The notes beneath the pieces are model-generated. The model ran no database searches and was not told where the DNA came from. It saw only the letters and a program-made list of their open reading frames with translations. Shown piece after piece: positions 586 to 57,945 of a stretch of 64,000 nt of DNA. This stretch comes from Candidatus Gorgyraea atricola (GTDB taxonomy: Bacteria > Omnitrophota > Gorgyraeia > Gorgyraeales > Gorgyraeaceae). Where the stretch lies: assembly GCA_030765235.1 (NCBI GenBank), contig JAVCCW010000010.1:94907-158906 (forward strand). The letters are read 5' to 3'. The number at the start of each line of letters is the position of its first letter. Within the stretch, counting starts at the first letter, position 1. Position numbers and translations under genes: made by a program.

Positions 586-705
586 AAAAATCCCAATACT
601 ACCAATACTACCAAATAAATCCCAATTTCAAAATCCCAAACATGGTTTTGGATTTGGGATTTTGGATTTATTTGGGATTTGGTAGTATTTGGATTTTGGA
701 TTTTT
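586..705. repeat. Family A imperfect palindromic intergenic repeat (words tcccaaa/taccaa, centre cccaaacatggttttgg)
   Basis: Inverted-repeat arms readable directly. Near-identical copies at 16894-17018 and 18210-18334, half copy at 24265-24345. Confidence 0.9.
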
Positions 706-2720
706 CATCTCACTAGTATCTGTGGCAGTAATGCCAAGTCCGCAATACGTTCTGTGTATAACCTGTTGATCGCCTTCATCATTGCCAGGCGATTAAGTCG
801 CAACGACCTATCTTTATCATTCACCATTACATTGTCAAAAAAATCATGCAATGCCCTGTAAAATGCCTGGGCATATTTCTTGGTCGCCTCTACGTATTCT
901 TCTTTATCAATTAGCGCGCTTATCTTATCTTTCGAATCTAAATATGCCTGCCAAACATCTTGCTCTAATTTTTCCTTGAAAAGCCCTTTATTCACTTCGC
1001 TGATTTTTTCATTCTTTGCACCTTTTAAGATATTGCTCGTACGCTCTACGACCTTTGCTGCTTCTAAAAAATACCTCTCGTTAGCCACAGAACTCAATGC
1101 CTCGATTCTATTAAATATATCAACTATGTCAGAACGCCCTGAGTCCAGTACTGCCCTTTTTAATTCAATGGGCCTTATGTCTCCCATTAAAAACTCCACC
1201 CTATCCTTTATATAATCAGCGACCTTCTCTTTTGAAGTCTTTAATTTGTTACCGTATAGCTGAATTGCTTTTTCTACTAGCTCTACTATTTCAAATCTCA
1301 GAGACTGATCTTTTACAATGCGAATAAGGCCTAGCGCGTTTCTTCTTATACCAAACGGATCAAAACTTCCGCTTACTTCCTTGGTTACTCCTAAAAAACC
1401 AACCACATTATCTATCTTATCGCTGATCGCGAGGATCGCGCCCTGTTTTGTCTTAGGCAAGTCATCTTCCAGGCCCTGAGGAAGATACTGCTCGCCTATG
1501 GCTAGCGCAATATCTTTTTCTTCTTTGTTTCTCAATGCATATTCTCTTCCCATCACACCCTGCAGGCTAGGAAACTCGCCCACCATGTGAGTGACAAGAT
1601 CTACTTTTGAAAGCTCGGCTGATTTTTCTATATTCTTTTTCAAAGAACTGTCTACGTTTAATCTGTCGCAGATAAAAACGCAAAGTACTTTCAGGCGTTC
1701 GATTTTTTCGAACATATTACCTAAATCCTTGTGAAAAATCAAGTCTTTTAATTGAGGGATATTATCCGAGAGGCTTCTTTTTATATCCTCGTCGAAGAAA
1801 AACAGGCTATCCTTTAGTTTTGCCTCTAAGATATTTTCATAATTTCTTCTAACCAGCCTTATGTTCCTGCCGCTGCCGTCTATTACAGCGATAAACCTGT
1901 TTGTGAGTCTATCTTTTTTCACAACAGGAAATATCCTCTGATGTTTTGCCATGCTGGCCCTGAGCACATCTTCTGGCAATGCCAGAAATTTCTTGTCAAA
2001 TTCTCCGCTGAATACCGTGGGGGAATTCACCATAAACGTTATCTCTTCCAGGAGCGCTTCATCAACGCATTGATCTGCCCTGAGTTTCTTTGTCTCGCGC
2101 AGGATCAATCTTTTTATCTCAGTCTTTCTTTTGTCTGAATCAGATAATTTTATTTTCTTTAGGTCTTTCGCTGAGGGGATGTTTCCGAGTCTTATATCTA
2201 AATGCTCTTTGCCGAATAATGCCAAGACTGACTCTATCGGCCTTGCAAAACGCAAACCAGAATCATCCCATCTCATTGTCTTTGGAAAATAGATATTCCT
2301 TATAATGCGCGGGGTTATTTCTTTAAGAATATCTTTTGTATTGCGGGCTTTTTCTTTTTTCTCAACAACTACATATTCGCCTTTTGGGGTCTCTTTGATT
2401 TTCAAATCCTCTATTTTCACACCCTGATTTTTTGCAAAACCAATAGCTTGCTTTGTAGGGTTACCGTTGTCGTCAAAGGCTATTCTTTTAGGTGGGCCTA
2501 GAATTTCCTTGGAGCTTTCCTTCTGGCACACATCCATATCTTTTATATAGCAAATCAATGAGTTCTTTGTACCTAAATTTACTGTGAGGTTATGGTCAAA
2601 AGCTATGCCTAACTTGGTTAGCTCTAAATGAAAATCACTGCATAGACTATCTAAAGCTCCCCTTACATAGCCTGCCGGCAACTCCTCCACATTTATCTCT
2701 AACAAAAAATTCTTCTTCAT
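705..2720 (-). CDS. glyS: glycine--tRNA ligase beta subunit
   Basis: 671 aa; N-terminus MKKNFLLEINVEELPAGYV typical of GlyS; lies directly downstream of glyQ. Confidence 0.85.
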   Translation of the reverse strand: MKKNFLLEINVEELPAGYVRGALDSLCSDFHLELTKLGIAFDHNLTVNLGTKNSLICYIKDMDVCQKESSKEILGPPKRIAFDDNGNPTKQAIGFAKNQGVKIEDLKIKETPKGEYVVVEKKEKARNTKDILKEITPRIIRNIYFPKTMRWDDSGLRFARPIESVLALFGKEHLDIRLGNIPSAKDLKKIKLSDSDKRKTEIKRLILRETKKLRADQCVDEALLEEITFMVNSPTVFSGEFDKKFLALPEDVLRASMAKHQRIFPVVKKDRLTNRFIAVIDGSGRNIRLVRRNYENILEAKLKDSLFFFDEDIKRSLSDNIPQLKDLIFHKDLGNMFEKIERLKVLCVFICDRLNVDSSLKKNIEKSAELSKVDLVTHMVGEFPSLQGVMGREYALRNKEEKDIALAIGEQYLPQGLEDDLPKTKQGAILAISDKIDNVVGFLGVTKEVSGSFDPFGIRRNALGLIRIVKDQSLRFEIVELVEKAIQLYGNKLKTSKEKVADYIKDRVEFLMGDIRPIELKRAVLDSGRSDIVDIFNRIEALSSVANERYFLEAAKVVERTSNILKGAKNEKISEVNKGLFKEKLEQDVWQAYLDSKDKISALIDKEEYVEATKKYAQAFYRALHDFFDNVMVNDKDRSLRLNRLAMMKAINRLYTERIADLALLPQILVR

Positions 2721-2780: not shown

Positions 2781-3626
2781 TCAGATTTTGAGATACAACT
2801 CCGCGCATTTCTTGGCTAAAGAACGGATCCTGCCTATGTAGCGTGGGCGTTCGCTCTGGCTTACAGCGCCGCGGGCATCAAGTATATTAAAGGCATGTGA
2901 TGCCTTTAAGACAAAACTATATGCCGGGTAGACCAATTTTTTCTCCAGCAGGGCCTTTGCCTCTTTCTCAAAAGATTCAAAACCTTTTAGATGCATATCT
3001 ATATCTGCTTCGTCAAAATTATATTTAGAATATTCTATCTCGTGTTTCTTGTGCAAGTCTCCGTATTTTACGCCTGGCTGCCATTCTAGATCAAAGACAT
3101 TGAACTTATTCTGTATAAACATTACTATGCGTTCCAGGCCGTACGTGATCTCGCAGGAGACATGGTCTACCTCTATACCGCCTATCTGCTGAAAATACGT
3201 AAACTGTGTTATCTCGAGGCTGTCCAGCCACACCTCCCAGCCCAGTCCAGACGCGCCAAGTGTAGGTGATTCCCAATCGTCTTCCACGAACCTGATCTCG
3301 TGCGCCTTTAGATCCACGCCCAGGACCTTGAGGCTCTCCAGATAAAGCTTTTTTATATCTCTCGGGTTTGGTTTTACCAGCACCTGATATTGATAATAAT
3401 GCTGCATGCGCAACGGATTATCCGCGTACCTGCCGTCAGTAGGTCGCCTTGAAGGCTGCACATATGCGGTACGCCATTTATCCTTGCCAAGCGATTTGAA
3501 AAACGTAGCTGGATGAAAAGTGCCTGCGCCCACCTCTGTATCAAGCGGCTGCACTATCACGCAACCTTGCTTCTGCCAGAATTTATTCAGTCTTTCGATT
3601 ACTTCGACAAATGTGAGTTTTCTCAT
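2781..3626 (-). CDS. glyQ: glycine--tRNA ligase alpha subunit
   Basis: 281 aa; [38 protein letters not shown] motifs of GlyQ. Confidence 0.9.
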
Positions 3627-3643: not shown

Positions 3644-3768
3644 GTGGAGGTTACGAAGGTTTCGGAAGGTTTCGGAATGTTGCGGAAGGTTGTCAAAAAG
3701 TTTGAAATCCATAGCTGTTGTAACCTTTCGTAACCTTCTCTAACATTCCGTAACATTCCGTAACCTCC
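3644..3768. repeat. Family B palindromic repeat (ggaggttacgaaggtt...aaccttcgtaacctcc)
   Basis: Long imperfect inverted repeat of acgaaggtt/tcggaa words; other copies at 22313-22420, 36058-36187, 53203-53272; half copy at 12013-12060. Confidence 0.9.
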
Positions 3769-3774
3769 CTATTA

Positions 3775-5055: not shown

Positions 5056-5757
5056 TTATCTCCTTAAAAACTGAAAGATCAATAGCGTTATGAAAATGCC
5101 TACTAGCGCGCCTGTAAAGACCTCTAGGGCCGAGTGGACACCATCCCTGACCCTGCTTCTGGACACAAGAAACGAAAGAATAAATACAAGAAAGATTACA
5201 ATGCTATTTGGATACAGTAGTGAGATTATGGTCCAGATGGAAAATGCTATTGCGCTGTGACCGCTTGGCATGCCCCCTCTTAGCGGCGTGCCGCTGCGGA
5301 ACAAGACCTTGCTTAAAACCACAAACCCCAGGATTGTTAATAAAACTATAAAACTGATATGCCAACTGGATTCCTTTATTTTTATTATATTGTCCTCTAT
5401 CCTGATACCCGCCTTTGAGACAAACAGCATGTAGCCGACAACTACAGCTGCTAACGCGCTCAATAAGACCGCGCCTGCGCATATATCCTTTACGATCCTT
5501 GCAAGAGGATGAAACTCTTCTTTGACCAAGTCTATGGTGTGTTCTATTGCCGTATTAAACATCTCGGCAAACAGGACAAACGCTATGGTAAGGCAAAGGA
5601 TTATCAGTTCTATGTATGTAAAATTTAAAAATATCCCAAGAATAATCGCTGTAATGCCGATCGCGAAATGCAGTCTCATATTGCGCTGGCTCTTAAAAAC
5701 AAATACAAAACCCTCTATAGCGGAATTAAAACTCTCTACCAGATTCTGCCGTTTCAC
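5056..5757 (-). CDS. dgkA: diacylglycerol/undecaprenol kinase (DgkA) fused to PAP2-family lipid phosphatase
   Basis: N-terminal half SFNSAIEGFVFVFKSQRNMRLH..AEMFNTAIEHTID is the DgkA fold. C-terminal half carries PAP2 motifs PSGH and SRSRVRDGVHSALEV. Confidence 0.75.
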   Translation of the reverse strand: MKRQNLVESFNSAIEGFVFVFKSQRNMRLHFAIGITAIILGIFLNFTYIELIILCLTIAFVLFAEMFNTAIEHTIDLVKEEFHPLARIVKDICAGAVLLSALAAVVVGYMLFVSKAGIRIEDNIIKIKESSWHISFIVLLTILGFVVLSKVLFRSGTPLRGGMPSGHSAIAFSIWTIISLLYPNSIVIFLVFILSFLVSRSRVRDGVHSALEVFTGALVGIFITLLIFQFLRR

Positions 5758-11575: not shown

Positions 11576-11587
11576 ATAAATATCCAA

Positions 11588-11635
11588 GGTCCAGCCTCGG
11601 CTTTTTAGTAACAAAAAGCCGAGGCTGGACCTTAG
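11588..11635. terminator. Family G hairpin (aaggtccagcctcggcttttt / aaaaagccgaggctggacctt) downstream of HU gene
   Basis: Perfect stem read from sequence; T-runs on both sides; candidate bidirectional terminator. Confidence 0.55.
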
Positions 11636-11643
11636 TTTTTTAG

Positions 11644-11916: not shown

Positions 11917-12012
11917 ACAAAACCTCCTTATGTTATCGTATCTAGTTTAATTACAAGGGGTAGTGTAACAGTTTCCAATTATGATGTCAAGAATGTTTTA
12001 TTAATATAACTT

Positions 12013-12060
12013 GTGGAGGTTACGAAGGTTACGGAAGGTTTCGCATTTGTACGGCTAACC
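12013..12060. repeat. Family B half copy (tgtggaggttacgaaggttacggaaggtttcg)
   Basis: One arm only. Confidence 0.7.
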
Positions 12061-13208: not shown

Positions 13209-13458
13209 TTTGCATCACAGGCAGGCTGGGGTCTGAGGCACATTAGGAAGATTTTGGCAAAAGTCCGCAAGGATTTACAGCGAGCCCCGTTCCAAATTCT
13301 TAAAGATTATCAAATAATATATCAAAATTGTACGCAGTTAGTTACAGATAATAAATCGAGAATCGATTAGAATTTGGAACGGGGCGAGCTGTAAACCGTA
13401 GCGGACGGCAAAATCTCTCCAGTGCCGAACGGCCCCAGCCTGTCTGTGATGCAAAAGC
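13209..13458. mobile_element. MITE-like long imperfect palindrome (two ~90 nt inverted copies around a ~70 nt AT-rich centre)
   Basis: Outer arms gcatcacaggcaggctgggg / ccccagcctgtctgtgatgc; inner arms agcgagccccgttccaaattct / agaatttggaacggggcgagct; no ORF. Confidence 0.55.
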
Positions 13459-16887: not shown

Positions 16888-16893
16888 AAATAG

Positions 16894-17018
16894 AAAATCC
16901 CAAATCCCAATAATACCAATACTACCAAATAAATCCCAATTTCAAAATCCCAAACATGTGTTGGGGTTTGGGATTTTGGATTTATTTGGGATTTGGTAGT
17001 ATTTGGATTTGGGATTTA
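16894..17018. repeat. Family A palindromic repeat copy
   Basis: Near-identical to 586-705 and 18210-18334. Confidence 0.9.
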
Positions 17019-17022
17019 TATT

Positions 17023-18183: not shown

Positions 18184-18209
18184 CCTAGTACCTCCTTTTG
18201 AAATACGCA

Positions 18210-18334
18210 AAAATCCCAAATCCCAATAATACCAATACTACCAAATAAATCCCAATTTCAAAATCCCAAACATGTGTTGGGATTTGGGATTTTGGATTTA
18301 TTTGGGATTTGGTAGTATTTGGATTTTGGATTTT
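18210..18334. repeat. Family A palindromic repeat copy
   Basis: Near-identical to 16894-17018. Confidence 0.9.
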
Positions 18335-18394
18335 CTACCATAAATATCTATTACCTTTTAGTTCTGTGTATAATACAGTAAACCTTGTAAAAAG

Positions 18395-20014: not shown

Positions 20015-20040
20015 GATCCTTATCCTTAATAACTCGTTGG

Positions 20041-20106
20041 TGTAAAGTGCAAAGTGTCAAGTGTCAGGGCCCTTTTGACACCTGACACCTAAAACCTGAC
20101 ACCAGC
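20041..20106. repeat. Family C palindromic repeat (gtgtcaagtgtcagg...cctgacacctgacacc)
   Basis: Other copies at 41376-41446, 45502-45531/45907-45944, 49389-49421; variant at 42903-42968. Confidence 0.85.
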
Positions 20107-22295: not shown

Positions 22296-22312
22296 GTGTT
22301 CCTCCTGTTTTT

Positions 22313-22420
22313 AGCGAAGGTTTCGTAAGGTTGTGTGAGGTTTCGTTAGGTTGCGTAAGGTTACATTATTGCAACTTCACGAAACATTACGAAACTTTAC
22401 GCAACTTCACGCAACCTCCA
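22313..22420. repeat. Family B palindromic repeat copy
   Basis: gcgaaggtttcgtaaggtt...cgcaacttcacgcaacctcc. Confidence 0.85.
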
Positions 22421-22472
22421 TAATATATAATTACACTAACTATATCACAGCCATTAATTATTGTCAAAAAAT

Positions 22473-22512
22473 AAAAACCCCGTTCCAAATTCTTAATTAA
22501 GAATTTGGAACG
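22473..22512 (-). terminator. groEL rho-independent terminator (perfect palindrome ccccgttccaaattcttaa/ttaagaatttggaacgggg + T-run)
   Basis: Perfect 19-bp stems followed by ttttt on the minus strand; preceded by a second hairpin at 22546-22577 (tgtaggtgaccctt/aagggtcacctaca). Confidence 0.7.
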
Positions 22513-22592
22513 GGGCACGGCCCGCGAGTTTGCGCGAGTTATCCACATTGTAGGTGACCCTTAAGGGTCACCTACAATTAGTTGTTTGCGTA

Positions 22593-24345
<1,753 letters not shown>

Positions 24346-27462: not shown

Positions 27463-27700
27463 AAAAAACTCTTAATCCATTATAGTGGATTAAGAGTTGC
27501 ACCCTGTTTTCTTCACCCTTTATGACTGCCCTCAGCAGCTCCCTGTTATAGGGAAAAATATATTGTAAGGTTTTCTGACTTAAGGCCGTCTACTCTCTGC
27601 GCCTTCTCGTCCGCCCAAAGCGAACAATGGCTTATTGCAGATTTCGTAACCTATTACAGCAGCGGGGCTGCGCTGGACTCCCACCAGCTTCCCTTAAACA
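27463..27700 (-). promoter_or_regulatory. cobalamin (B12) riboswitch with terminator expression platform
   Basis: Minus strand AAGGGAAGCTGGTGGGAGTCCAGCGCAGCCCCGCTGCTGTAATAGG matches the AAGGGAA..GGTG..A.TCC..GC.G.CCCGC..CTGTAA core; GAAGGC further on. Terminator aactcttaatccactataatggattaagagtttttt at 27463-27499. Candidate promoter TTGACT-17-TATAAA at about 27740-27770. Confidence 0.75.
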
Positions 27701-27771
27701 ACATAATATGAAATATTCAATTGTAAATATTTTATACCCTAATTACTAAAACAAGTCAACAAAAAAATACC

Positions 27772-27806
27772 TTTGCCGAAAAAGCCGAGGTCCAGCCTCG
27801 GCTTTT
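27772..27806 (-). terminator. rho-independent terminator after the ABC ATPase gene (family G hairpin + T-run)
   Basis: aaaaagccgaggctggacctcggcttttt on the minus strand. Confidence 0.65.
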
Positions 27807-30279: not shown

Positions 30280-30800
30280 TACTCTATTCCTTTCCTCGCG
30301 CCAACCTTAGATCTAAAAGGATGTTTTTTATCTATCATTGCCGTCACATAATCCGCATGCTCTTCTATGCCAGAGATATCCCCTCTACCTGTAAGCACCA
30401 ACTCAAGTTCCTGTGGTACACTTTTTAATAATTTGAGGAATTTTTCCTTACTGAAAAACCCTTGATCTATAACATTTATAACTTCATCCAACACCACCAT
30501 GCCATACTTCTTGCTAAACATTACCTTTTCTGCTTCTTTGACCATTCTCTCGATAGCCTTTTTCACCTTCCCTTGTCCCTTGTCACTTGTCACTTGTCCC
30601 ATAAATAAAGGGTGACATTCCTCGCACTTCACAACCTCTATGCTTAACTCCTTAGCCGAAATCTCTTCCCCGCAAACCAGTTTCTCAGGCTTAAAAAACT
30701 GGAACACGCAGACCTTAAGTCCCTGGCCGCTCGCCCTCATTGCCAGGCCAAAGGCCGAAGTAGTCTTGCCTTTTCCATTTCCAGTATAAATATGTATCAT
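30276..30800 (-). CDS. cobO: cob(I)yrinic acid a,c-diamide adenosyltransferase (CobO/BtuR)
   Basis: MIHIYTGNGKGKTTSAFGLAMRA P-loop start typical of CobA/CobO; contains in-frame (cttgtc)-heptamer tract at 30570-30600. Confidence 0.85.
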   Translation of the reverse strand: MIHIYTGNGKGKTTSAFGLAMRASGQGLKVCVFQFFKPEKLVCGEEISAKELSIEVVKCEECHPLFMGQVTSDKGQGKVKKAIERMVKEAEKVMFSKKYGMVVLDEVINVIDQGFFSKEKFLKLLKSVPQELELVLTGRGDISGIEEHADYVTAMIDKKHPFRSKVGARKGIEY

Positions 30801-30821: not shown

Positions 30822-30957
30822 TTAGAAACTCTAAACACTAAACTCTAAATCCTAAACAAACTCAAAACACAAAACTCAAATGCCAAAACTGCAGTTTTGA
30901 GTTTTGGATTTGGGGTTTTGGATTTGTTTAGAGTTTAGGGTTTCGAATTTAGAGTTT
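30822..30957. repeat. Family F palindromic repeat (aaactctaaa.../...gttttggatttggggttttgg, centre ctgcag)
   Basis: Imperfect inverted repeat; right arm shares words with family A. Confidence 0.8.
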
Positions 30958-30964
30958 ATATTTA

Positions 30965-36057: not shown

Positions 36058-36187
36058 ACGTGGAGGTTACGTAAAGTTACGGAAGGTTTCGGAATGTTGC
36101 GTAAGGTTGTATTAAGAGCGTTGGAATCCATCGCTCTTGTAACCTTCGGTAACCTTCTCTAACATTCCGTAACCTTCGTAACCTCCA
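36058..36187. repeat. Family B palindromic repeat copy
   Basis: tggaggttacgtaaagttacggaagg...ccttcgtaacctcca. Confidence 0.9.
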
Positions 36188-37047: not shown

Positions 37048-37600
37048 CCATGTCTATTTCGCGCTTCAGCAAACTTTTTAATGATGTGATCTCAACGCCT
37101 TCAATGCCACATGGCCTGATAAATGAAAAAGGCATAAGATCAGTGTTGATATTCATGGCCAAGCCGTGATACGTGACCCATTTTTTTACGCCTATGCCTA
37201 TGGAGCCGATTTTTTTATTGTCGGTCCATACACCTCTGAGTCCAGGTCTTTTTTCTGTAAAAATCCCGTATTGTGCTAAAAAAGCGCTTCCTATCTCTTC
37301 TAAAAACTCTAAAAATCTATGTATATCCCGACTCTCATTTTCCAGTTTAAAAATAGGGTACGCTATGAGCTGGCCAGGGCCGTGATATGTAACATCCCCA
37401 CCCCTGTCAGTCTGAACCACATGGATCTCGCGCCTAAATACATTCTGCTCTGAACCAGTTCTCCCTATTGTTATAACTGGGTTGTGTTCTGTTACGAGTA
37501 ACGTATCTTCACAAATACCCAGGGCAACTCTCTCTACGAATTCCCTCTGAAGCTGATATATCTCTGAAAAATCAGTTACACCCAAATCTATAACTCGCAT
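36974..37600 (-). CDS. lipB: octanoyltransferase
   Basis: 208 aa; LipB/LplA-type fold (..RTGSEQNVF..RGGDVTYHGPGQL..). Confidence 0.9.
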   Translation of the reverse strand: MRVIDLGVTDFSEIYQLQREFVERVALGICEDTLLVTEHNPVITIGRTGSEQNVFRREIHVVQTDRGGDVTYHGPGQLIAYPIFKLENESRDIHRFLEFLEEIGSAFLAQYGIFTEKRPGLRGVWTDNKKIGSIGIGVKKWVTYHGLAMNINTDLMPFSFIRPCGIEGVEITSLKSLLKREIDMDDAKNRLISTFKEIPLLAETVSKN

Positions 37601-37628
37601 AATGACTTGAACGGGCTAACGACCTCAG

Positions 37629-41350: not shown

Positions 41351-41375
41351 GTTATCCTATTTCAATAGCGCCTCT

Positions 41376-41446
41376 AGTGTCAGGTTTTAGGTGTCAAGTG
41401 TCAAGGAGCTAAAATCCCTGACACCTTTCACCTGACACTTGACACC
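41376..41446. repeat. Family C palindromic repeat copy
   Basis: agtgtcaggttttaggtgtcaagtgtcaagg...cctgacacttgacacc. Confidence 0.85.
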
Positions 41447-41451
41447 AACGC

Positions 41452-42885: not shown

Positions 42886-42902
42886 CTCCGGTCTCTCCTT
42901 CT

Positions 42903-42968
42903 GTGTAATGTGTAAAGTGTAAGGTGTAATGTAATTGGGGTAGCTTGGTACATTACACATTACACAAC
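42903..42968. repeat. Family C variant palindrome (gtgtaatgtgtaaagtgtaagg...cattacacattacac)
   Basis: Imperfect inverted repeat between recA and htrA. Confidence 0.75.
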
Positions 42969-42979
42969 CGTTGTCCGTA

Positions 42980-44253: not shown

Positions 44254-45507
44254 TTGCATATAATAAGACCTATGGAAATATCCTCGCATGTAATATGCAT
44301 TGGCAATGAAATTATGCTTGGCCATATTAATAACACAAATGCCCAGCATATTTCAGAGAAACTCTCCTCTATTGGCATAAAGACTGCAAAGCATCTGTCC
44401 ATTCCTGACGTTCCAAAGGTTATTATTAATTCAATAAAAAATAGTCTAGCCGATGCTAATATCGTTATAGTTACAGGTGGTCTTGGTCCTACTGTGGATG
44501 ACCTGACGCTTGACTGCATCGGAAAGGCACTGGATAGAAAACTCATCTTTAAAGACAGGGTTGCAAACCATATAAGGCAGCATTTTAAAAATCGTAAGTT
44601 AAAGATGCCAAAAAATAACCTGCGCCAGGCACTTATACCTGAAGGGGCAACCCCAATACTAAACAATATAGGCAGCGCCCCAGGCCTTATAATCCAGACA
44701 AAAGGAAAAGTCCTTATTGCATTACCAGGTGTGCCTTTTGAAATGCATGCCATGATAAAAGATACTGTGCTGGGCTTTCTTAAAAAGAGATTCTCTCCAG
44801 GCAGGCTAATAAAATCCCGCGTAATAAAAATAACAGGGCTTCCAGAGTCAAAGGTGAATGAAAAGATCGAGGACATATTGAAGCTGGGTGGCAATGTCCA
44901 GATGGGTATCTACCCTCACCCCGAAGAGATCACAGTAAAGATAACTGTGACTGACAAAAAGGCTGACGCTACAATAAAAAAGATCGAGAGAAAGATAAAA
45001 TCACGGCTGGGAAACTACATATTCGGCTATGATGAAGAGAAATTAGAAGAAGTTGTTGGCAAGCTGCTCTTAAAAAAGAAAAAAACCTTAGCAGTCGCAG
45101 AATCCTGCACAGCCGGACTTTTGGCGAGTAGAATCACAGACGTTTCTGGAAGTTCAAGGTATTTCAAGATGGGTGTAGTTACTTACAGTAATCAAGCTAA
45201 GAATAAACTTCTATATGTGCCTAAAGATACGATAAAACAACACGGCGCTGTCTCCAAACAAGTAGCAAGCGCAATGGCCAAAAACATGCGGCTATTAGCT
45301 GACGCAAGCATAGGAATCGGTATAAGCGGCATTGCAGGTCCAACCGGCGGCACCAAGAAAAAACCAGTAGGCCTAGTCTACATCGCGCTCTCAACAAAGA
45401 AAAAGACCATTTGCAAAGAATTCCGCTTCCTGGGCCAGCGAAATATCATAAAGTTTAAAGCCACTCAAGCAGCCCTTAACCTGGTGAGGCTTCATGGGCT
45501 TGTGTAA
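44254..45507 (+). CDS. cinA: competence/damage-inducible protein CinA (MoCF-binding + PncC deamidase domains)
   Basis: 417 aa; N-terminal VICIGNEIMLGHINNTNAQ..VIVTGGLGPTVDD. Confidence 0.9.
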   Translation: MHIIRPMEISSHVICIGNEIMLGHINNTNAQHISEKLSSIGIKTAKHLSIPDVPKVIINSIKNSLADANIVIVTGGLGPTVDDLTLDCIGKALDRKLIFKDRVANHIRQHFKNRKLKMPKNNLRQALIPEGATPILNNIGSAPGLIIQTKGKVLIALPGVPFEMHAMIKDTVLGFLKKRFSPGRLIKSRVIKITGLPESKVNEKIEDILKLGGNVQMGIYPHPEEITVKITVTDKKADATIKKIERKIKSRLGNYIFGYDEEKLEEVVGKLLLKKKKTLAVAESCTAGLLASRITDVSGSSRYFKMGVVTYSNQAKNKLLYVPKDTIKQHGAVSKQVASAMAKNMRLLADASIGIGISGIAGPTGGTKKKPVGLVYIALSTKKKTICKEFRFLGQRNIIKFKATQAALNLVRLHGLV

Positions 45508-45538
45508 AGTGTCAAGTGTCAGGTGTCAAGGAGGATAA

Positions 45539-45908
45539 AGTGAGAAATTACAGGTTTGATTTCGAGAAATTAGATGTGTATGAGAAAACGTTAGATTTTG
45601 CAAATAAGGTTTTTAATATTACCAAGAAATTTGATAGAGAAATTCAATATTCACTTGGAGACCAATTTCGTAGAGCCTCTCTATCTATATGTAATAATAT
45701 CGCTGAGGGCAGCGGTAGACCCAGTCAAAACGCAAAAAGACAATTTTACGGCTACGCCTTAGATTCAGCCAGAGAATGTATACCAATGATAACGTTAAGC
45801 CAAATGCAGAATCAAATTACTAAACAAGATGAAGAAGCATTAAGAGACGAATGTATAAGTATCTGTAATATGACTGGCAAGCTAAAAATGTCAACAAAGC
45901 ATCCCTGA
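45539..45908 (+). CDS. four-helix-bundle protein (23S-rRNA-intervening-sequence protein family)
   Basis: ..YRFDFEKLDVYEKTLDF..SICNNIAEGSGR.. pattern. Start placed at GTG 45539 after AAGGAGG (ORF track starts at an upstream GTG inside the repeat). Gene bracketed by inverted family C copies. Confidence 0.7.
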
Positions 45909-45944
45909 CGCATTGACACTTAACACCTGACACCTGACACTAAC

Positions 45945-46504: not shown

Positions 46505-46765
46505 TCATCTATAAATCTCTCTTCTATGACCCAGGTCAATGATGTATACGATAAGCCGATTTTTATGAACTGTATATATCACACGGTAACTTCCTACGCG
46601 CAATGAATAGTCGCCTGAAAGTTTACCTTTAAGGCTTTTAGCTTGATAGGGGTCTGTCTTTAGGGCTTCTATGGCAGAGATTAGGCGGGAATACAATTTT
46701 TTGTCTTCTTTGTAAACTTTTCGCAGTTCTTTTGCTGCTGAATTGGCAAATTCTATTTTATACAT
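46505..46765 (-). CDS. RelE/ParE-family type II toxin
   Basis: 86 aa; ..LRVGSYRVIYTVHKNRLIVYIIDLGHRREIY; overlaps antitoxin gene by 8 nt. Confidence 0.8.
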   Translation of the reverse strand: MYKIEFANSAAKELRKVYKEDKKLYSRLISAIEALKTDPYQAKSLKGKLSGDYSLRVGSYRVIYTVHKNRLIVYIIDLGHRREIYR

Positions 46766-47033
46766 CTTTCTCTATCTTTTGCCTCAGCTTAGCTAAGGAA
46801 ATAGTCTTGCCTTCCCCAATCTCCTTCTTTGCCTTTTTTATCCTTCGGGCAACGGTTTTATTAGAAAGAATTTGTATGGTCTCTAAGAGGCCTTCGTAAT
46901 CATCAGGGCTCATCATGATAGCTATAGGTTTTCCTCGCTTTGTGACAATATAGCGATCCAGCCTATCGTCAATATGCTTTATTACTTCTGGTAATTCTGG
47001 TCGTAGTTCTTTTAAGGTAATTGTGTTAACCAT
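46758..47033 (-). CDS. Phd/YefM-family antitoxin
   Basis: 91 aa; ..YIVTKRGKPIAIMMSPDDYEGLLETIQILSN. Confidence 0.8.
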   Translation of the reverse strand: MVNTITLKELRPELPEVIKHIDDRLDRYIVTKRGKPIAIMMSPDDYEGLLETIQILSNKTVARRIKKAKKEIGEGKTISLAKLRQKIEKDV

Positions 47034-50151: not shown

Positions 50152-50236
50152 ATCGTTTAGCCCGTTAGCCCGTTGCCCGTTAGCCCGTTGACCCATTAAC
50201 GGGCAAACGGGCTAAACGGGCAACGGGCTAAACGGA
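50152..50236. repeat. Family D palindromic repeat (cccgttagcccgttgcccgtt.../...aacgggcaacgggctaaacgg)
   Basis: Half copy at 52413-52452. Confidence 0.85.
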
Positions 50237-52411
50237 TTCGGAAGATTCTTCTTCCTTAATCTTGTATTCAGCTATCAGGATCTCTCTTGGCTTACTGCCT
50301 CTAAATGGGCCTACTATGCTTTCCTCTTCCATCGCGTCTATTAATCGCGCAGCCCTGGTGTAGCCCAGCCTGAGCCTGCGCTGCAGCATTGAAACAGAGG
50401 CCTGGCCTGTCTCAAGCACCATCTTTACTGCTTCGTCGAAAAACTCGTCCTTTTTAAAACCGCCTCGCCCAGACATGCTTTTTTTCTGCTGTTCAAGTAT
50501 TGCATCATCATAGATAGGATCTCTTTGTTCCTTTACTGAATTAACGACTTTTTCTATTTCAGCGTCTGTCAGGAGCGTACCTTGCGCGCGTACGGGCTTT
50601 GCGTTGCCAGGCTCTAAAAACAGCATATCGCCCTTGCCCAATAACTTATCCGCGCCATTCATATCTAAAACAGTCCTTGAATCCACTTTCGACGCCACTT
50701 TGAATGAGATCCTTGCTGGAAAATTCGCTTTTATTACACCTGTTACAACATCCACGGACGGCCGCTGCGTCGCGAGTATTATATGTATGCCCACTGCCCT
50801 TGAAAGCTGCGCGAGCCTCGTGATCGCATTCTCAACATCCTGCTGCGCTACTATCATAAGGTCTGCCAGCTCATCTATGATCACTACAAGATAAGGCATC
50901 TTTTCGCTGGATTTCTGGTTAAAGGCGTCTATGTTTCTCGCTACAGCCTTTGCAAGCTTCTTATATCTCACTTCCATCTCACTCACGACCCATTCAAGAA
51001 CGCCTGATGCCTTTTTTGAATCTGTAACCACAGGGCACAGAAGATGCGGCAGGCCATTATAGATAGCCAGCTCCACCATCTTTGGGTCCACCATTATGAA
51101 TTTCAATTCATCAGGCGTTGCATTATATATCATGCTCATTATCAAAGAATTCACGCACACAGTCTTGCCAGAGCCAGTAGTACCCGCGATCAAAAGATGC
51201 GGCATGTCGCCAAGATCTGCCACTACGCTCCTCCCAGCAATATCTTTTCCAAGCGCTATGGCAAGCTTTGAAGAGCCTGCCTGTTTCTGATATTCGCGAG
51301 ATTCAAGGATCTCTCTTAAGCCCACAAGGGATGTACTTTGATTCGGGACCTCTATGCCCACTGCTGATTTGCCCGGTATAGGGGCCACGATCCTGACTGT
51401 AGTCGCCTTCATAGTAAGCGCAATGTCATCACTTAAGGCTGTGATCTTATTCACCTTTACGCCAGGCGCTGGCTGCAGCTCGTACCTGGTAATAACAGGT
51501 CCCTTGTTTATCTCTACCACCTTTGCATCTATGCCAAAATCCTGCAAGGTATCCTCTAATACCCTGGCACTTCCTTCTAAATCCTCGCCCTTAATCTTCT
51601 CTGGCTCAGATGAAGGCATATTTAATAATTCCAAAGAAGGAAGCTTGTAGTCTCCGACTATCCTTGGTGTAAGTTTAACTGGTTTTTTAGGGGCAGGTTT
51701 TGGTTGAGCGAATATCTTAGGTTTTGGCAATACGATCCTCGGCGCAACTGGCCTCTCTACCTTTTTCTCTTCCTTGTCCCTTGTCCCTTGTCCCTTGTCC
51801 CTTGTCCCCAAGTTAACCGCCGGTCTCAACTTAGGCCTATCCTTAACCCTGACCCTCTTCTTGCTCGCCATCCCCGATATCAATTTCCATGCGCGGCCAA
51901 ATAAAAATGAAAAAATAGGTATAATCAAAAACTCTGTAGCAACCATGAGCGACAGGATAGCCAATGCAAGGGTTACTATGTATCCGCCGATCCCGCCAAA
52001 GTATCCAAGAATCTTGCTCGAAACAAAAAAACCAATAAGCCCGCCCCTCTCGACCGAAAGAACAGAATCTCCTGCGGCTGTAAGACTGAAGAACGCGCTG
52101 GCTGAGCTAAAAAGCAGCCCCAATCCTAAAAACCTGAACAAAGGTTTTTGTTCTAATCTTTCAGCGAGAATACCAATACCCCACGTGAAACACAAGAATG
52201 GAATAAGAAAACCCGCATAGCCCACTACCTTAAACACAAGCCACGCAAGATACGCGCCCACTATGCCAATATAATTTCTAACATGCAGATTCGGGGAGGA
52301 TGTTTCAAAGGAAATATCGTAAGGAGAGTAAGAAACCATTGCCGCCAGTAAAATCACTGCCAGCGCGAATAAGCTAAGCGAGATCAGTAAATCTTTCTTA
52401 TCTCTTGTCAT
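50228..52411 (-). CDS. ftsK: DNA translocase FtsK
   Basis: 727 aa; N-terminal TM helices, linker, motor domain with Walker A GTTGSGKT. Linker contains (cttgtcc)x4 heptamer tract at 51775-51805. Confidence 0.95.
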   Translation of the reverse strand: MTRDKKDLLISLSLFALAVILLAAMVSYSPYDISFETSSPNLHVRNYIGIVGAYLAWLVFKVVGYAGFLIPFLCFTWGIGILAERLEQKPLFRFLGLGLLFSSASAFFSLTAAGDSVLSVERGGLIGFFVSSKILGYFGGIGGYIVTLALAILSLMVATEFLIIPIFSFLFGRAWKLISGMASKKRVRVKDRPKLRPAVNLGTRDKGQGTRDKEEKKVERPVAPRIVLPKPKIFAQPKPAPKKPVKLTPRIVGDYKLPSLELLNMPSSEPEKIKGEDLEGSARVLEDTLQDFGIDAKVVEINKGPVITRYELQPAPGVKVNKITALSDDIALTMKATTVRIVAPIPGKSAVGIEVPNQSTSLVGLREILESREYQKQAGSSKLAIALGKDIAGRSVVADLGDMPHLLIAGTTGSGKTVCVNSLIMSMIYNATPDELKFIMVDPKMVELAIYNGLPHLLCPVVTDSKKASGVLEWVVSEMEVRYKKLAKAVARNIDAFNQKSSEKMPYLVVIIDELADLMIVAQQDVENAITRLAQLSRAVGIHIILATQRPSVDVVTGVIKANFPARISFKVASKVDSRTVLDMNGADKLLGKGDMLFLEPGNAKPVRAQGTLLTDAEIEKVVNSVKEQRDPIYDDAILEQQKKSMSGRGGFKKDEFFDEAVKMVLETGQASVSMLQRRLRLGYTRAARLIDAMEEESIVGPFRGSKPREILIAEYKIKEEESSESV

Positions 52412-52412
52412 T

Positions 52413-52452
52413 TTCCCGTTTCCCGTTAGCCCGTTGCCCGTTTAGCCCGTTA
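52413..52452. repeat. Family D half copy
   Basis: cccgtttcccgttagcccgttgcccgtttagcccgttac. Confidence 0.75.
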
Positions 52453-53202: not shown

Positions 53203-53272
53203 GAGGTTACGAAGGTTATGGAAGGTTATGTAACGTTCCATAACATTACGTAACATTCCATAACCTCCACGT
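53203..53272. repeat. Family B palindromic repeat copy (short)
   Basis: aagaggttacgaaggttatggaagg...cattccataacctcc. Confidence 0.85.
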
Positions 53273-55358: not shown

Positions 55359-55381
55359 TGAAGACTCCCTTTCTTAGTTGT

Positions 55382-55450
55382 AGCTTTCAGCCCTCAACTC
55401 TCAGCTCTCAGCCTTAAAAGCTGAAAGCTGACAGCTGATCGCTGAAAGCT
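55382..55450. repeat. Family E palindromic repeat (agctttcagccctcaactctcagc.../...gctgacagctgatcgctgaaagct)
   Basis: Imperfect inverted repeat between pnp and rpsO. Confidence 0.8.
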
Positions 55451-55524
55451 ATCGTTATAATAAAAGCGGATCTGCCGACCCTAATTACCTGCTTAGCGAC
55501 CCAGGTCGTTAAATCCGCCCTTCA

Positions 55525-55821: not shown

Positions 55822-56772
55822 CTATTTTTTACCCCTGCGGTCAAGCAATTTCTTCACGACCAACATATATCCCAATATCTTTAACTCATATAATACTATA
55901 AAAGGTAGATTCAATAATATGCCACGTAATGAATCATTCTTTTTTATGCATAAGTATCTATTCTTAATATACCTTCTCTTCAACTCCTCAGAAATACGGT
56001 GGACTAGGGGTTGGGGTGTCCTGTGAGTGGGAGGATCCACACCGGGCGGAGGGGCCCACGAACAGGATACCCCGACCTCTAGTCCACCCGCAGTTCCCCC
56101 TCTCACATGATACGCTAGTGCCTTCGGGTTATAATATGCTTTCCAATCCTTCTTCTGTGCTCTCCAACATAAGTCTAGATCTTCGTAATACATGTCAAAT
56201 CTCTCGTCAAAATATCCATATTTATCCCTTACATTCTTCAGCATGCTTTTTCTTAAAAAAGCGCATGCGCCGCTGGCTCCAAATACATATCCTGGCTCAT
56301 CATACTGCCCCTTGTCTACCTTTCCATAGCCTCTCTCGACTGGCTTTCTATTCTTGCCTAAAAATAATCCTGTTGAATCTATGGTCTTTTTATCCATTCT
56401 TAATATTTTTCCGCTTACCATGCCGATTCGCGTATCAAGACCTATCGCCAATAGAACCTGCCTCAGATAATCTTTGTCCAACACGCAGTCGTTATTCAGG
56501 CATAAGACAAAATTCCCTTTTGACGCATCAATGCCCTGATTCTGCGCTTTACAAAAAAGAAGGTTGCTGGTATTTCTGATCAATTGAACATCCGAATAAT
56601 ACATGGCTACCATCTCGATACTGCCATCGGTAGAGGCATTATCTACAACAATAGTCTCAATATCCTGAAAATTCTGTCCCCTTACGGAGTCCAGACACTG
56701 CCTCAACAAATCTTTCCTGTTGTAATTGACAATTATTATTGATATCATAGATTTAATTATATCATGAATCAA
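55822..56772 (-). CDS. GT2 glycosyltransferase carrying an in-frame 93-nt GC-rich palindromic insertion
   Basis: N-terminal IIIVNYNRKDLL..VVDNASTDGS; C-terminal ..RRYIKNRYLCIKKNDSLRGILLNLPF.. is normal GT2 tail. Between them lies a foreign 31-aa segment AGGLEVGVSCSWAPPPGVDPPTHRTPQPLVH. Confidence 0.8.
   Translation of the reverse strand: MIHDIIKSMISIIIVNYNRKDLLRQCLDSVRGQNFQDIETIVVDNASTDGSIEMVAMYYSDVQLIRNTSNLLFCKAQNQGIDASKGNFVLCLNNDCVLDKDYLRQVLLAIGLDTRIGMVSGKILRMDKKTIDSTGLFLGKNRKPVERGYGKVDKGQYDEPGYVFGASGACAFLRKSMLKNVRDKYGYFDERFDMYYEDLDLCWRAQKKDWKAYYNPKALAYHVRGGTAGGLEVGVSCSWAPPPGVDPPTHRTPQPLVHRISEELKRRYIKNRYLCIKKNDSLRGILLNLPFIVLYELKILGYMLVVKKLLDRRGKK
55997..56089. repeat. GC-rich palindromic element inside GT2 CDS (arms cggtggactaggggttggggtgtcctgt / acaggataccccgacctctagtccaccc)
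   Basis: 93 nt = 31 codons; locally very GC-rich against an AT-rich host gene; reads through in frame. Confidence 0.85.
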
Positions 56773-57945
56773 ACAGAAACCAAACCCTTATCACCCCTCA
56801 TATTTATTCCCTTATTATCCCTTATCTTCATCCGGCCTTTCATCTCTGGCCTTGCATACCCGGCCTTTGAGATGTTTTATGAAAACATCTTGATATTCCT
56901 TGCTATCATGATCTTATTCATGGAAAGATCCAGATTTAAACTGTATCCTAAAAATTTCAGTAACTTCCCTGTAATATTCCTATTATTTGCCTATGCTATT
57001 TCAACTATATTCTCGATCAACATACAAAACTCTATTAGAGAAACGCTTAAATTCATCAGTTTCTTTGCCATATTCTTTATGGTTTCCCAATCTGATGAAA
57101 AACAAAAGAAACTGCTGCTAAAGACCATTGTCATAGCTGCTTCAATAATAAGTCTGTATTCAATATACCAGTACTTCTGGGGATATGGACGCACACTAGA
57201 TTATCTACAAAAAACCAACAGCGATTTTCTCTCCACCTCTTCCTATGCCCGCGACATCCTGCTCTCAAAACGCGCAATAGGAACATTTCCCTCTCCGAAT
57301 ATCTTAGCTGGATACTTGATAATAATGTTTTTTCTCGCAATGCACTTACAGCGTCGCATTTCGCTAGTTCTAATCACTGCTGCGTTAATCCTCACTAAAT
57401 CCATGGGCGCGTGGTTAAGTCTTATTGCTGCACTGATCTACCTCGGTAACTTCGTAAGTTACCCAAAGGGTAACTTACGAAGTTACCGAGGTAAGTTAAT
57501 GGCAGTATTAATCGTAGCTATACTATGTTTTATCCTCGTGAATCGCTGGGAACGCCTGATGAACATGGAAAACCCGCAAAATTCCATTACCCAGCGCCTA
57601 AACTACTGGCGCACAGCCATAGCCATAATAAAAGATCAGGCTATTTTTGGAGTCGGACCTGGTAATTTTCAAGAAGTCTTCTTGGGGCATAAGGTAGGCT
57701 TAGGCACAGATACAAGATACGCGCATAACATATTTCTTCACATATGGTCAGAAATAGGTATCTTAGGTCTTGTAGGAGTCTTTTACCTTATTATTAATTT
57801 TTTCAGAAAAGCCAGATCTCAATCCAGCTATAGATTTATACTGTGCGGCGGGCTTGTGTTTATCCTGCATAATCTCATAGATAATACCTTTTTCATGCCT
57901 CAAGCTGCACTCTTCTGGTGGATATTACTGGCTTCTAAGGAATAG
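56764..57945 (+). CDS. O-antigen ligase/polymerase family membrane protein (Wzy_C domain)
   Basis: 393 aa polytopic membrane protein. Contains in-frame perfect palindrome at 57441-57491. Confidence 0.7.
   Translation: MNQTETKPLSPLIFIPLLSLIFIRPFISGLAYPAFEMFYENILIFLAIMILFMERSRFKLYPKNFSNFPVIFLLFAYAISTIFSINIQNSIRETLKFISFFAIFFMVSQSDEKQKKLLLKTIVIAASIISLYSIYQYFWGYGRTLDYLQKTNSDFLSTSSYARDILLSKRAIGTFPSPNILAGYLIIMFFLAMHLQRRISLVLITAALILTKSMGAWLSLIAALIYLGNFVSYPKGNLRSYRGKLMAVLIVAILCFILVNRWERLMNMENPQNSITQRLNYWRTAIAIIKDQAIFGVGPGNFQEVFLGHKVGLGTDTRYAHNIFLHIWSEIGILGLVGVFYLIINFFRKARSQSSYRFILCGGLVFILHNLIDNTFFMPQAALFWWILLASKE
57441..57491. repeat. Perfect 24-bp-arm palindrome inside O-antigen ligase CDS (cctcggtaacttcgtaagttaccc-aaa-gggtaacttacgaagttaccgagg)
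   Basis: 51 nt = 17 codons encoding LGNFVSYPKGNLRSYRG; words ttacgaag/cttcgtaa relate it to family B. Confidence 0.85.

Follow-up and report, generated by a model that had tools for sequence, protein, structure and literature searches.

Tandem-word hairpins between genes of Candidatus Gorgyraea atricola (Omnitrophota), probable members of a selfish element class resembling rRNA intervening sequences

The stretch of DNA considered here (the window) consists of 64,000 nt of Candidatus Gorgyraea atricola, a metagenome-assembled genome (MAG) of the phylum Omnitrophota that originates from Ace Lake, Antarctica, and statements made at the level of the genome rest on these 64 kb. The PNPase and CobO encoded in it are 100% identical to proteins recorded for this organism. 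Almost all of the genes in the window lie on the minus strand. The elements of interest are three hairpins, termed families D, E and F, whose arms each repeat a short word in tandem and which are found in the spacers around ftsK, pnp and cobO. The features at these sites are as follows.

50154..50234, no strand assigned: family D hairpin, occupying the entire ftsK-rodZ spacer
52412..52452, minus strand: family D direct array, with AACGGG units in the mRNA sense; it takes up the bacA-ftsK spacer as far as the ftsK ATG
55381..55451, minus strand: family E hairpin, part of the pnp leader; the rpsO terminator precedes it and the pnp Shine-Dalgarno sequence follows
55462..55520, minus strand: rpsO intrinsic terminator of canonical form (stem followed by UUUUAUUAU), distinct from E and just upstream of it
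30823..30960, no strand assigned: family F hairpin, between the stop of a small-multidrug-export gene (30965) and the start of cobO (30800)

The family D hairpin has a left arm of four to five CCCGTT units, each followed by one to three further nucleotides, and a right arm of four to five AACGGGC units with zero to two nucleotides after each. Tandem arrays were called with Tandem Repeats Finder (TRF), inverted repeats were called separately, and folding z-scores are given relative to dinucleotide shuffles. The TRF periods for D are 8–9 nt with matches of 84–100%, and the predicted fold in the mRNA sense reaches -62.8 kcal/mol (z = -8.8). The outermost unit contains the ftsK stop codon (50228-50230), and the rodZ ATG (50150) is located 3–4 nt past the stem. 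The initial annotation had placed a palindrome of this family at both 50152-50236 and 52413-52452. Both positions hold up, as does the hairpin at the first, but the second is a direct array only: positions 52412-52452 contain no reverse-complement half and do not fold by themselves (z = -0.45). The complementary D arrays bracket ftsK, such that the AACGG array at 52412-52449 could pair with the CCGTT arm at 50190-50227, and ftsK ranks second in the window in a flank-complementarity test.

The family E hairpin is confirmed in the position first proposed for it, between pnp and rpsO, and is assigned to the pnp leader because the rpsO terminator is found just upstream. Its 7-nt units are repeated 4.4 times and then, as the reverse complement, 4.9 times, forming arms of 35 nt that are 83% complementary. 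Folding in the mRNA sense yields -51.5 kcal/mol (z = -8.4). In the window the sense strand is 13–14 kcal/mol more stable than the antisense strand, and a comparison with the related contig L081 (here and below, L with a number denotes a fetched relative, metagenome or plasmid locus or contig) gives an advantage of 10–13 kcal/mol in both genomes. The family F hairpin is built of 7-nt units in two arms of 69 nt that are 77% complementary and have no loop at all between them; its fold in the mRNA sense is -47.3 kcal/mol (z = -8.5). It had been described as lying after cobO at 30822-30957. A hairpin is indeed present there, but with the genes on the minus strand it is upstream of cobO rather than downstream.

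The initial interpretation is upheld in part. As first described, the three hairpins share one architecture with the other families of the window, namely arms of tandem words followed by their reverse complement. The arms of D, E and F are 77–95% complementary and contain 4–10 unit copies each at 70–100% match (TRF), and the stems comprise 25–52 base pairs. No open reading frame (ORF) is present in the loop of any of the three. A terminator scan calls none of them, and all are without a U-run, their tails reading AAACGAUUAUG, CAACUAAGAAAGG and CUAAGAAGAGG. With no U-run and with the rpsO terminator called separately, an identity as intrinsic terminators is ruled out, and CRISPR identity is likewise ruled out, the units being contiguous and without spacers. 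An Rfam scan of the window at gathering thresholds recovered only a cobalamin riboswitch, and the hairpins match no curated RNA family and no rRNA; no tRNA genes were found in the window. The riboswitch (27548-27743, minus strand, RF00174, 87 bits) is positioned upstream of a TonB-dependent receptor gene and downstream of the btuFCD-cobO cluster. The D, E and F hairpins are confirmed as real structures beyond what chance would produce.

Orthologous sites were compared in the syntenic relatives L081-L086, with PNPase 92–94% identical, and in L143, with CobO 83% identical; a more distant comparison set comprises L001-L003 (PNPase 76–80%). E is present in L081-L084. Compared with its orthologue in L081, it shows six substitutions over 74 nt, all of which fall within four stem pairs: one C-G pair is changed to U-A, two G-C pairs to G-U, and one mismatch to A-U. 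Judged from these substitutions, E is shown to be under constraint at the RNA level. Elsewhere the pnp leader carries a plain perfect hairpin (L085) or a different long plain stem (L002). D is also present in L081-L084, where every unit in both arms reads TCCGTT/AACGGA instead of CCCGTT/AACGGG. Since this switch extends to all units and both arms, units and arms have changed in concert. The direct D array between bacA and ftsK is absent in L081, in which the two genes overlap, and L086 has a different direct array there (AGTATCGAG). At the F site L143 has an 18-bp plain hairpin with a T-run. The D word occurs at two sites in the window and at two in L023, a distant member of the Omnitrophota with 67% G+C, in which these CCGTT/AACGG arrays are likewise intergenic and abut start codons. 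The recurrence of D-type and E hairpins in independent assemblies of relatives answers the concern, raised initially, that the elements might be absent outside this contig.

The architecture is abundant in the window. At least 13 complete hairpins were identified by eye in the 64 kb, in addition to one split pair and several half elements. A pair detector, which requires a TRF array and a reverse-complementary TRF array no more than 80 nt apart, finds 11 elements versus 0 in 50 dinucleotide-preserving shuffles. After gene calls had been corrected with Pfam, and counting gaps of at least 60 nt, complete hairpins are found in 11 of 19 intergenic gaps and partial ones in two more. A 'G-like array' near 56800, with the gaps 56773-57899 and 37048-37628, proved to be coding by Pfam (Wzy_C on the plus strand, LplA/B) and was dropped from the census. 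The hairpins lie between co-directional genes, frequently taking up the whole spacer, and the adjacent genes are of all kinds (glyQS, recO, dnaE, MoxR, alaS, htrA, ftsK, rodZ, bacA and cobO among them). This ordinary mix of housekeeping genes does not bear out the proposal that such elements stand beside highly expressed genes. When the detector was applied to the pnp neighbourhoods of 80 other genomes (1.3 Mb) it gave three hits, all in Omnitrophota. No such hairpins are present around pnp in L001-L003, and it is therefore the Gorgyraea lineage alone that shows the high density; isolated hairpins or arrays of this kind are also found in L008 and L023.

At least seven different words are represented within the 64 kb. 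Besides D, E and F, and apart from one element that carries a gene and is described below, the members are as follows.

3645..3772, no strand assigned: family A hairpin, 10-nt units of the GGAAGGTTAC type
22312..22422, no strand assigned: family A hairpin, downstream of a terminator and a promoter and hence in a 5' untranslated region
36058..36186, no strand assigned: family A hairpin
53206..53268, no strand assigned: family A hairpin in the pnp-bacA spacer, where relatives have other words or nothing
12010..12045, minus strand: family A 3' arm alone (half element)
590..706, no strand assigned: family B hairpin, 7-nt units AAATCCC / GGGATTT
16890..17020, no strand assigned: family B hairpin, almost identical to the copy at 18207-18336
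18207..18336, no strand assigned: family B hairpin
24266..24345, no strand assigned: family B partial copy, comprising the 3' arm and the loop-proximal portion of the 5' arm
20036..20106, no strand assigned: family C hairpin without an ORF
41370..41448, no strand assigned: family C hairpin without an ORF, sharing irregular arm units with the gene-bearing copy
42898..42970, no strand assigned: additional hairpin with TGTGTAA / ACATTAC units, in the recA-htrA spacer
51772..51808, minus strand: perfect direct heptamer array in the coding region of the ftsK linker, sense GGACAAG x5.3
30569..30600, minus strand: direct heptamer array in the coding region of cobO, sense GACAAG[GT] x4.6

The four family B elements are near-identical across ~120 nt, including irregular units and the loop. 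Family A elements have a common unit order and loop sequence, and family C copies have irregular arm units in common. Independent slippage would not reproduce such shared irregularities, and the elements have therefore spread as units. This pattern departs from the initial suggestion of one mechanism that generates different words at different loci. Near-identical copies of one word are found at several loci (families A and B, the arm units of C, and D), and different words are found at a single locus in close relatives. The pnp-bacA gap is an example of the latter: it is occupied by family A in the window, by a second A subtype in L086 and, in L081, by the unrelated word AGGGGAATA, and is almost empty in L085. 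In L081 (3795-3808) and L085 (2306-2320) the frame encoding PNPase continues into the array, and the C-terminus is predicted as AGDKGK and DKGE in these two contigs versus QAQE in the window and L086. On these translations, hairpin elements can remodel protein termini. The arrays within coding regions are translated as low-complexity linker (GTRDKGQGTRDK and similar); at the ftsK linker position L081 has CAGAGAA (5269-5300) and L086 has GACAAGT/GACAAGG (3253-3289).

One member of family C differs from the hairpins described so far in that a gene is found in its loop.

45502..45533, plus strand: 5' arm of the gene-bearing family C element, AGTGTCA units; it provides the cinA stop codon
45540..45908, plus strand: PF05635 / TIGR02436 gene in the loop of the family C hairpin, encoding a 23S-rRNA-IVS protein (four-helix bundle, Avd-like)
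45911..45944, plus strand: 3' arm of the gene-bearing family C element, TGACACC units; it reaches the ligT ATG (45945), which is itself within the insert

The encoded protein belongs to the family named after the intervening sequences (IVSs) of 23S rRNA, and its members are abbreviated IVP here. It is related to XCC0516 of Xanthomonas campestris (PDB 2GSC), and the PF05635 family is homologous to Avd of diversity-generating retroelements (PMC10053308). In L081 and L083 cinA and ligT overlap directly (CTTCAT-CTATG-ATCCG), and the arms and gene are wholly absent. In the window ~440 nt, comprising arms and gene, stand in place of CTATG, and the insert gives cinA a new stop codon and ligT a new ATG. 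The ligT end of this insertion region is adjoined by a ParE-toxin / Phd-YefM-antitoxin pair (46505-47033, minus strand). Among the 61 ORFs of the window there is no gene for a transposase, a Y1/RAYT protein, a reverse transcriptase (RT), an integrase or RNase III (rnc); a known insertion sequence or miniature inverted-repeat transposable element (MITE), which the initial annotation had considered as an explanation, does not account for the elements. An IVP gene at the F site had also been considered on the basis of a common 4042-bp contig of P0125 (IVP) and P0242 (cobO), and was rejected, as the two contigs differ.

The association between PF05635 genes and inverted arrays extends well beyond the window. 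A metagenome scan with the window protein recovered 42 loci, 38 of them testable, and by alignment inverted short tandem arrays flank the PF05635 homologue (down to 30% identity) in 29 of the 38. The flank alignment scores are 29–77, versus shuffle maxima of 17–29. The words vary by locus and include AGTGTGTAAGTT, AAGGTTAAAGG, GTAATGC, AACGTGA, CGCGTAA and GCAGGGA, as well as GACGTCC, TCTGAGA, AAAGTTNNT, GGCGAGT and others. An independent test, in which both arms had to be TRF arrays, is passed by 25 metagenome and 4 plasmid loci with 335–612 nt between the arms. A tblastn search of 72,556 plasmids returned 31 records, of which 30 are cyanobacterial (Nostoc 17, Calothrix 3, Aulosira 2 and others) and one is from Azospirillum. 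Twelve plasmid loci were inspected, and ten have inverted arrays (nine cyanobacterial, one Azospirillum; e.g. GGGAACA x4 / TGTTCCC x7, CAGGAGT / ACTCCTG and GGGTGTA / TACACCC), one is flanked by direct arrays and one by none. Among control genes from L001-L080, 6 of 1127 (0.5%) reach a score of 29, which places the association of PF05635 with arrays 50- to 150-fold over control genes. One of these six, found blind, is itself a PF05635 gene, with GGCGGAA / TTCCGCC arms, on a Spartobacteria (Verrucomicrobia) contig. A second, in an Omnitrophota contig (L017, 15152-16102), has inverted-repeat flanks and encodes an IS200-like Y1 transposase that is fused to a DnaA-C-like helix-turn-helix.

Bare hairpins and an IVP-bearing element on the same contig have irregular arm sequence in common in three cases, namely window family C, L102 and L126. 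In L102 the two forms share 25 identical nt, including the odd unit AATGTTC. L094 contains a 48-codon PF05635 remnant (profile positions 1-36, E = 3.3e-6). The arms on either side of it, CCGGTTAG ... CTTAACCGGTAAACCGG, are D-like and are predicted to pair with each other. From its sequence, this locus resembles a decay intermediate, partway from full element to bare hairpin. Some loci in this set have further peculiarities. In L090 the same ~127-nt stretch occurs on both sides of the IVP element (1-127 and 652-778), which may be a tandem duplication or an assembly effect. Many IVP homologues are located on very short contigs, consistent with multi-copy repeats breaking assemblies. In L135, a plasmid of Picosynechococcus sp. 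PCC 7003, a type III-B CRISPR operon has, between its cas10 and cmr3 genes, a four-helix-bundle gene flanked by inverted GAGGAGATAAG / CTCCTAATCTCC arrays.

Based on these observations, D, E and F are probably ORF-less members of a class of selfish, IVS-like hairpin elements whose arms are arrays of degenerate 7–10-nt words. The class is best read as corresponding to the hairpins formed by the cyanobacterial tandem-heptamer repeats known as STRR, and as resembling the IVSs of 23S rRNA. The fuller form of the element would carry a PF05635 gene in its loop, and internal deletion of such IVP-bearing elements would leave bare hairpins, dispersed as copies. Because the elements often supply the stop or start codons of flanking genes, they would be transcribed as part of operon mRNAs. 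In E. coli the pnp leader contains an RNase III hairpin that autoregulates pnp (Portier and co-workers), and transcripts of the Correia elements of Neisseria are RNase III substrates. By analogy with the E. coli pnp leader and with IVSs, RNase III probably cuts the double-stranded stems of the transcribed elements. Such cutting would either excise the element at the RNA level or split or destabilise the operon transcript. Slippage together with template switching from arm to arm may keep the arrays within an element alike (concerted evolution). Individual copies may also have been co-opted; E, which occupies the position of the hairpin through which E. coli pnp is autoregulated and is constrained at the RNA level, is a candidate for this.

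Several points weigh against a selfish origin of D, E and F. The words of E and F, searched in a total of 1.69 Mb of fetched sequence, gave only orthologous copies and weak look-alikes, so that each is single-copy. No IVP-bearing copy with a D, E or F word was found in the 64-kb window, and no target-site duplication is seen on comparison of filled and empty sites at cinA-ligT and pnp-bacA. The missing rnc gene in the 64-kb window also counts on this side. Nine of 13 hairpins fold slightly better as the antisense strand, and there is no general sense bias, E being the sole exception. With no sense (G.U) bias outside E, selection at the RNA level is unsupported for D and F, the structures of which could be relevant at the DNA level or have no role. 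Solitary direct arrays and those within coding regions are not explained by a pure hairpin-element model. Finally, the causality might be reversed, with PF05635 genes inserting into the loops of existing hairpins rather than producing them.

The strongest of the alternatives is that the hairpins are RNA structures with a function for the host (processing sites, mRNA stabilisers or unconventional terminators) that are kept locus by locus, their repeats being a by-product of slippage with neither mobility nor any tie to PF05635. Conservation of E at its orthologous site, with compensatory and G.U changes and better folding of the sense strand, is what this would predict. The replacement of repeat hairpins by plain ones at the same sites (the pnp leader in L085 and L002, the F site in L143) and the single-copy state of E and F in the 1.69 Mb also fit. 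However, structures kept for each locus would not be expected to be near-identical at unrelated loci, as in families A and B, nor to come and go among very close relatives, as in the pnp-bacA gap with L085 almost empty. Twelve of the 13 hairpins are without sense-strand bias, U-tracts are missing although ordinary terminators exist alongside, and the association of arrays with PF05635 genes is far in excess of that with control genes. A purely host-functional origin therefore seems unlikely, although it suits E.

A somewhat less likely alternative is the one closest to the initial annotation, in which a local process (slippage combined with fold-back or a template switch, or a polymerase or RT that copies reiteratively) makes each hairpin de novo at its site and families arise by chance or convergence. 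Words that differ at one position are readily accommodated, whether at pnp-bacA, in the ftsK linker (GGACAAG vs CAGAGAA), or in the switch between classes I and II in Nostoc P6b (PMC4476775). The same is true of the D hairpin, all of whose units, in both arms, differ in concert between the window and L081, of the complete lack of a loop in F, and of the extension of the array word into the 3' end of the pnp coding region in L081 and L085. Local generation does not, however, account for copies at separate loci that share irregular unit order and loop over >100 nt, or for the cinA-ligT insertion, which brought arms and gene jointly into a hairpin-free site; nor does the window contain an RT or special polymerase.

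Mobilisation of repetitive extragenic palindromes (REP/REPIN) by RAYT, an IS200-like Y1 transposase, or an origin as classical MITEs appears improbable. The elements are intergenic, palindromic and multi-copy, and the IS200-like Y1_Tnp gene with inverted flanks in L017 indicates that such systems exist in Omnitrophota. Nevertheless, neither Y1 nor any other transposase is encoded among the 61 ORFs of the window, target-site duplications were seen at neither cinA-ligT nor pnp-bacA, and the sole gene found within an element is PF05635. The arms are also tandem over their whole length, rather than one conserved REP unit or short terminal inverted repeats. Assembly or amplification artefacts can be set aside as extremely improbable: fold-back chimeric reads can yield palindromes in a MAG, but assemblies made independently, from different samples and with different pipelines (ENA ERZ247946xx, JGI, NCBI), contain these elements at the orthologous sites, and the elements diverge between assemblies in an evolutionary pattern and lie inside contigs exactly between intact genes.

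Beyond the reading of D, E and F as ORF-less selfish elements, a broader proposal can be made more tentatively, and is itself more doubtful than that reading. PF05635 proteins might be the active factor of a mobile hairpin class that crosses phyla, binding, propagating or generating the arrays that flank them. STRRs, the arrays of Xanthomonas and Geobacter, IVSs and the Omnitrophota hairpins would then form one system with non-transposase mobility, possibly with a polymerase or RT partner as Avd has in diversity-generating retroelements. What the analysis adds is a testable link, spanning at least four phyla, between PF05635 and such hairpins, which connects the STRR type with IVSs. Should this link be true, it would tie together several repeat classes that have been described separately, give biological context to the orphan PF05635 family, including the retroelement accessory protein Avd, and partly explain the poor assembly of such genomes. 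For annotation, the elements are relevant as they supply stop and start codons, appear to alter protein termini (as at the PNPase C-terminus in relatives) and put long double-stranded RNA stems in operons.

The window also contains palindromes of other kinds. A perfect palindrome with 26-nt arms (TACCTCGGTAACTTCGTAAGTTACCC and its reverse complement) is found at 57439-57493 inside the Wzy_C (O-antigen ligase) ORF at 56764-57945 (plus strand), and an inverted repeat at 55998-56088, with 34-nt arms that are 85% complementary, is within a glycosyltransferase ORF (55822-56772, minus strand). One palindrome family without tandem units, AAAAGCCGAGG-CTGGA-CCTCGGCTTTT, occurs at 2735-2782, 11577-11642 and ~27780-27800 and resembles a bidirectional terminator. 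A second non-tandem family, GCCCCGTTCCAAATTCTTAA..., occurs at 13263-13406 and ~22470-22520; one copy is a terminator, and the other is the core of an inverted repeat with 56-nt arms in a 357-nt gap.

The tandem-heptamer repeats of cyanobacteria have reportedly been known since Mazel et al. in 1990, and intervening sequences in rRNA have been known for about as long. STRR hairpins of filamentous cyanobacteria, of which the hupS-hupL hairpin is an example, consist of tandem 7-nt words, and their origin and function are given as unknown (PMC2670836). Strains of Nostoc differ in which of two word classes makes up the P6b stem of the trnL intron (PMC4476775), and Xanthomonas genomes contain 70–75 convergent GGGAATC pairs each (PMC4692102). 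The elements described here have the same build as these three, contrary to the initial view that they represent no described class. The likeness to STRR extends to degenerate ~7-nt words in tandem with a complementary array after them that forms a hairpin, to the intergenic or intercistronic location, to the presence of several word families per genome, and to the way in which relatives can have different word classes at one and the same site (PMC2670836, PMC4476775). Cyanobacterial PF05635 genes also occur between such arrays, as in the window. The complementary array is present in D, E and F and missing at 52412-52452, which is direct only. Dispersed copies are numerous for the class as a whole (at least 13 in 64 kb), with the D word at several sites, and E and F occur once each in 1.69 Mb. 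The differences are that the words are not the same, that units reach 8–10 nt (families D and A), that the density is very high (the 11 of 19 gaps noted above), and that the host belongs to the Omnitrophota; the STRR class was originally defined on heterocystous cyanobacteria and needs widening if these elements are counted. The same architecture is thus present, and very dense, in an uncultured phylum unrelated to the cyanobacteria.

The IVSs of 23S rRNA (Coxiella, Leptospira, Salmonella) are bounded by terminal inverted repeats, some enclosing an S23p/PF05635 ORF and others none, and their stem is cleaved internally by RNase III; the literature treats them as selfish elements, with mobility, origin and function given as unknown (PMC4990558). 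They share with the window elements the long inverted-repeat stem, the optional PF05635 ORF in the loop, and the occurrence of ORF-less forms alongside. The family C element at 45502-45944 has exactly this layout, and D, E and F have it without the ORF. The window elements differ in being located in mRNA spacers between protein genes rather than in rRNA helices 9, 25 or 45. Their arms are tandem arrays of short words, and the comparison with rRNA IVS arms is one of layout only.

The heptamer arrays of other bacteria are also similar in part. Those of Xanthomonas are intergenic and form inverted pairs, and the PF05635 structure 2GSC, which matches the window protein, is also from Xanthomonas campestris. 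Direct TAACTGA arrays in Beggiatoaceae often end 1 nt before start codons (PMC4679880), like the D array at 52412-52452, and Geobacter has related direct heptamer arrays (PMC2700814). In contrast to the at least seven words in 64 kb found here, Xanthomonas, Nostoc, Geobacter and Beggiatoaceae have one dominant word per genome. The papers on the Xanthomonas, Beggiatoaceae and Geobacter heptamers read the repeats as G-quadruplex or regulatory elements. The terms S23 and helix bundle are absent from the STRR and heptamer repeat papers (PMC2670836, PMC4692102, PMC4679880, PMC2700814), and no literature joining PF05635/S23p to STRR or heptamer repeats was found among open-access papers. Neither the description of Ca. 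Gorgyraea atricola nor a newer survey of Omnitrophota genomes mentions these repeats.

REP/BIME/REPIN, Correia/NEMIS and ERIC elements are likewise small intergenic palindromes in dispersed families that are co-transcribed with their neighbours. Unlike REP/REPIN and MITEs, the window elements are without a Y1 or DDE transposase partner among the 61 ORFs and without target-site duplication. Their arms are internally tandem throughout, not a single imperfect palindrome of ~20–40 nt as in REP, and the associated gene encodes a four-helix-bundle protein. D, E and F belong to a known, unexplained kind of repeat, for which the Omnitrophota are a new phylum.

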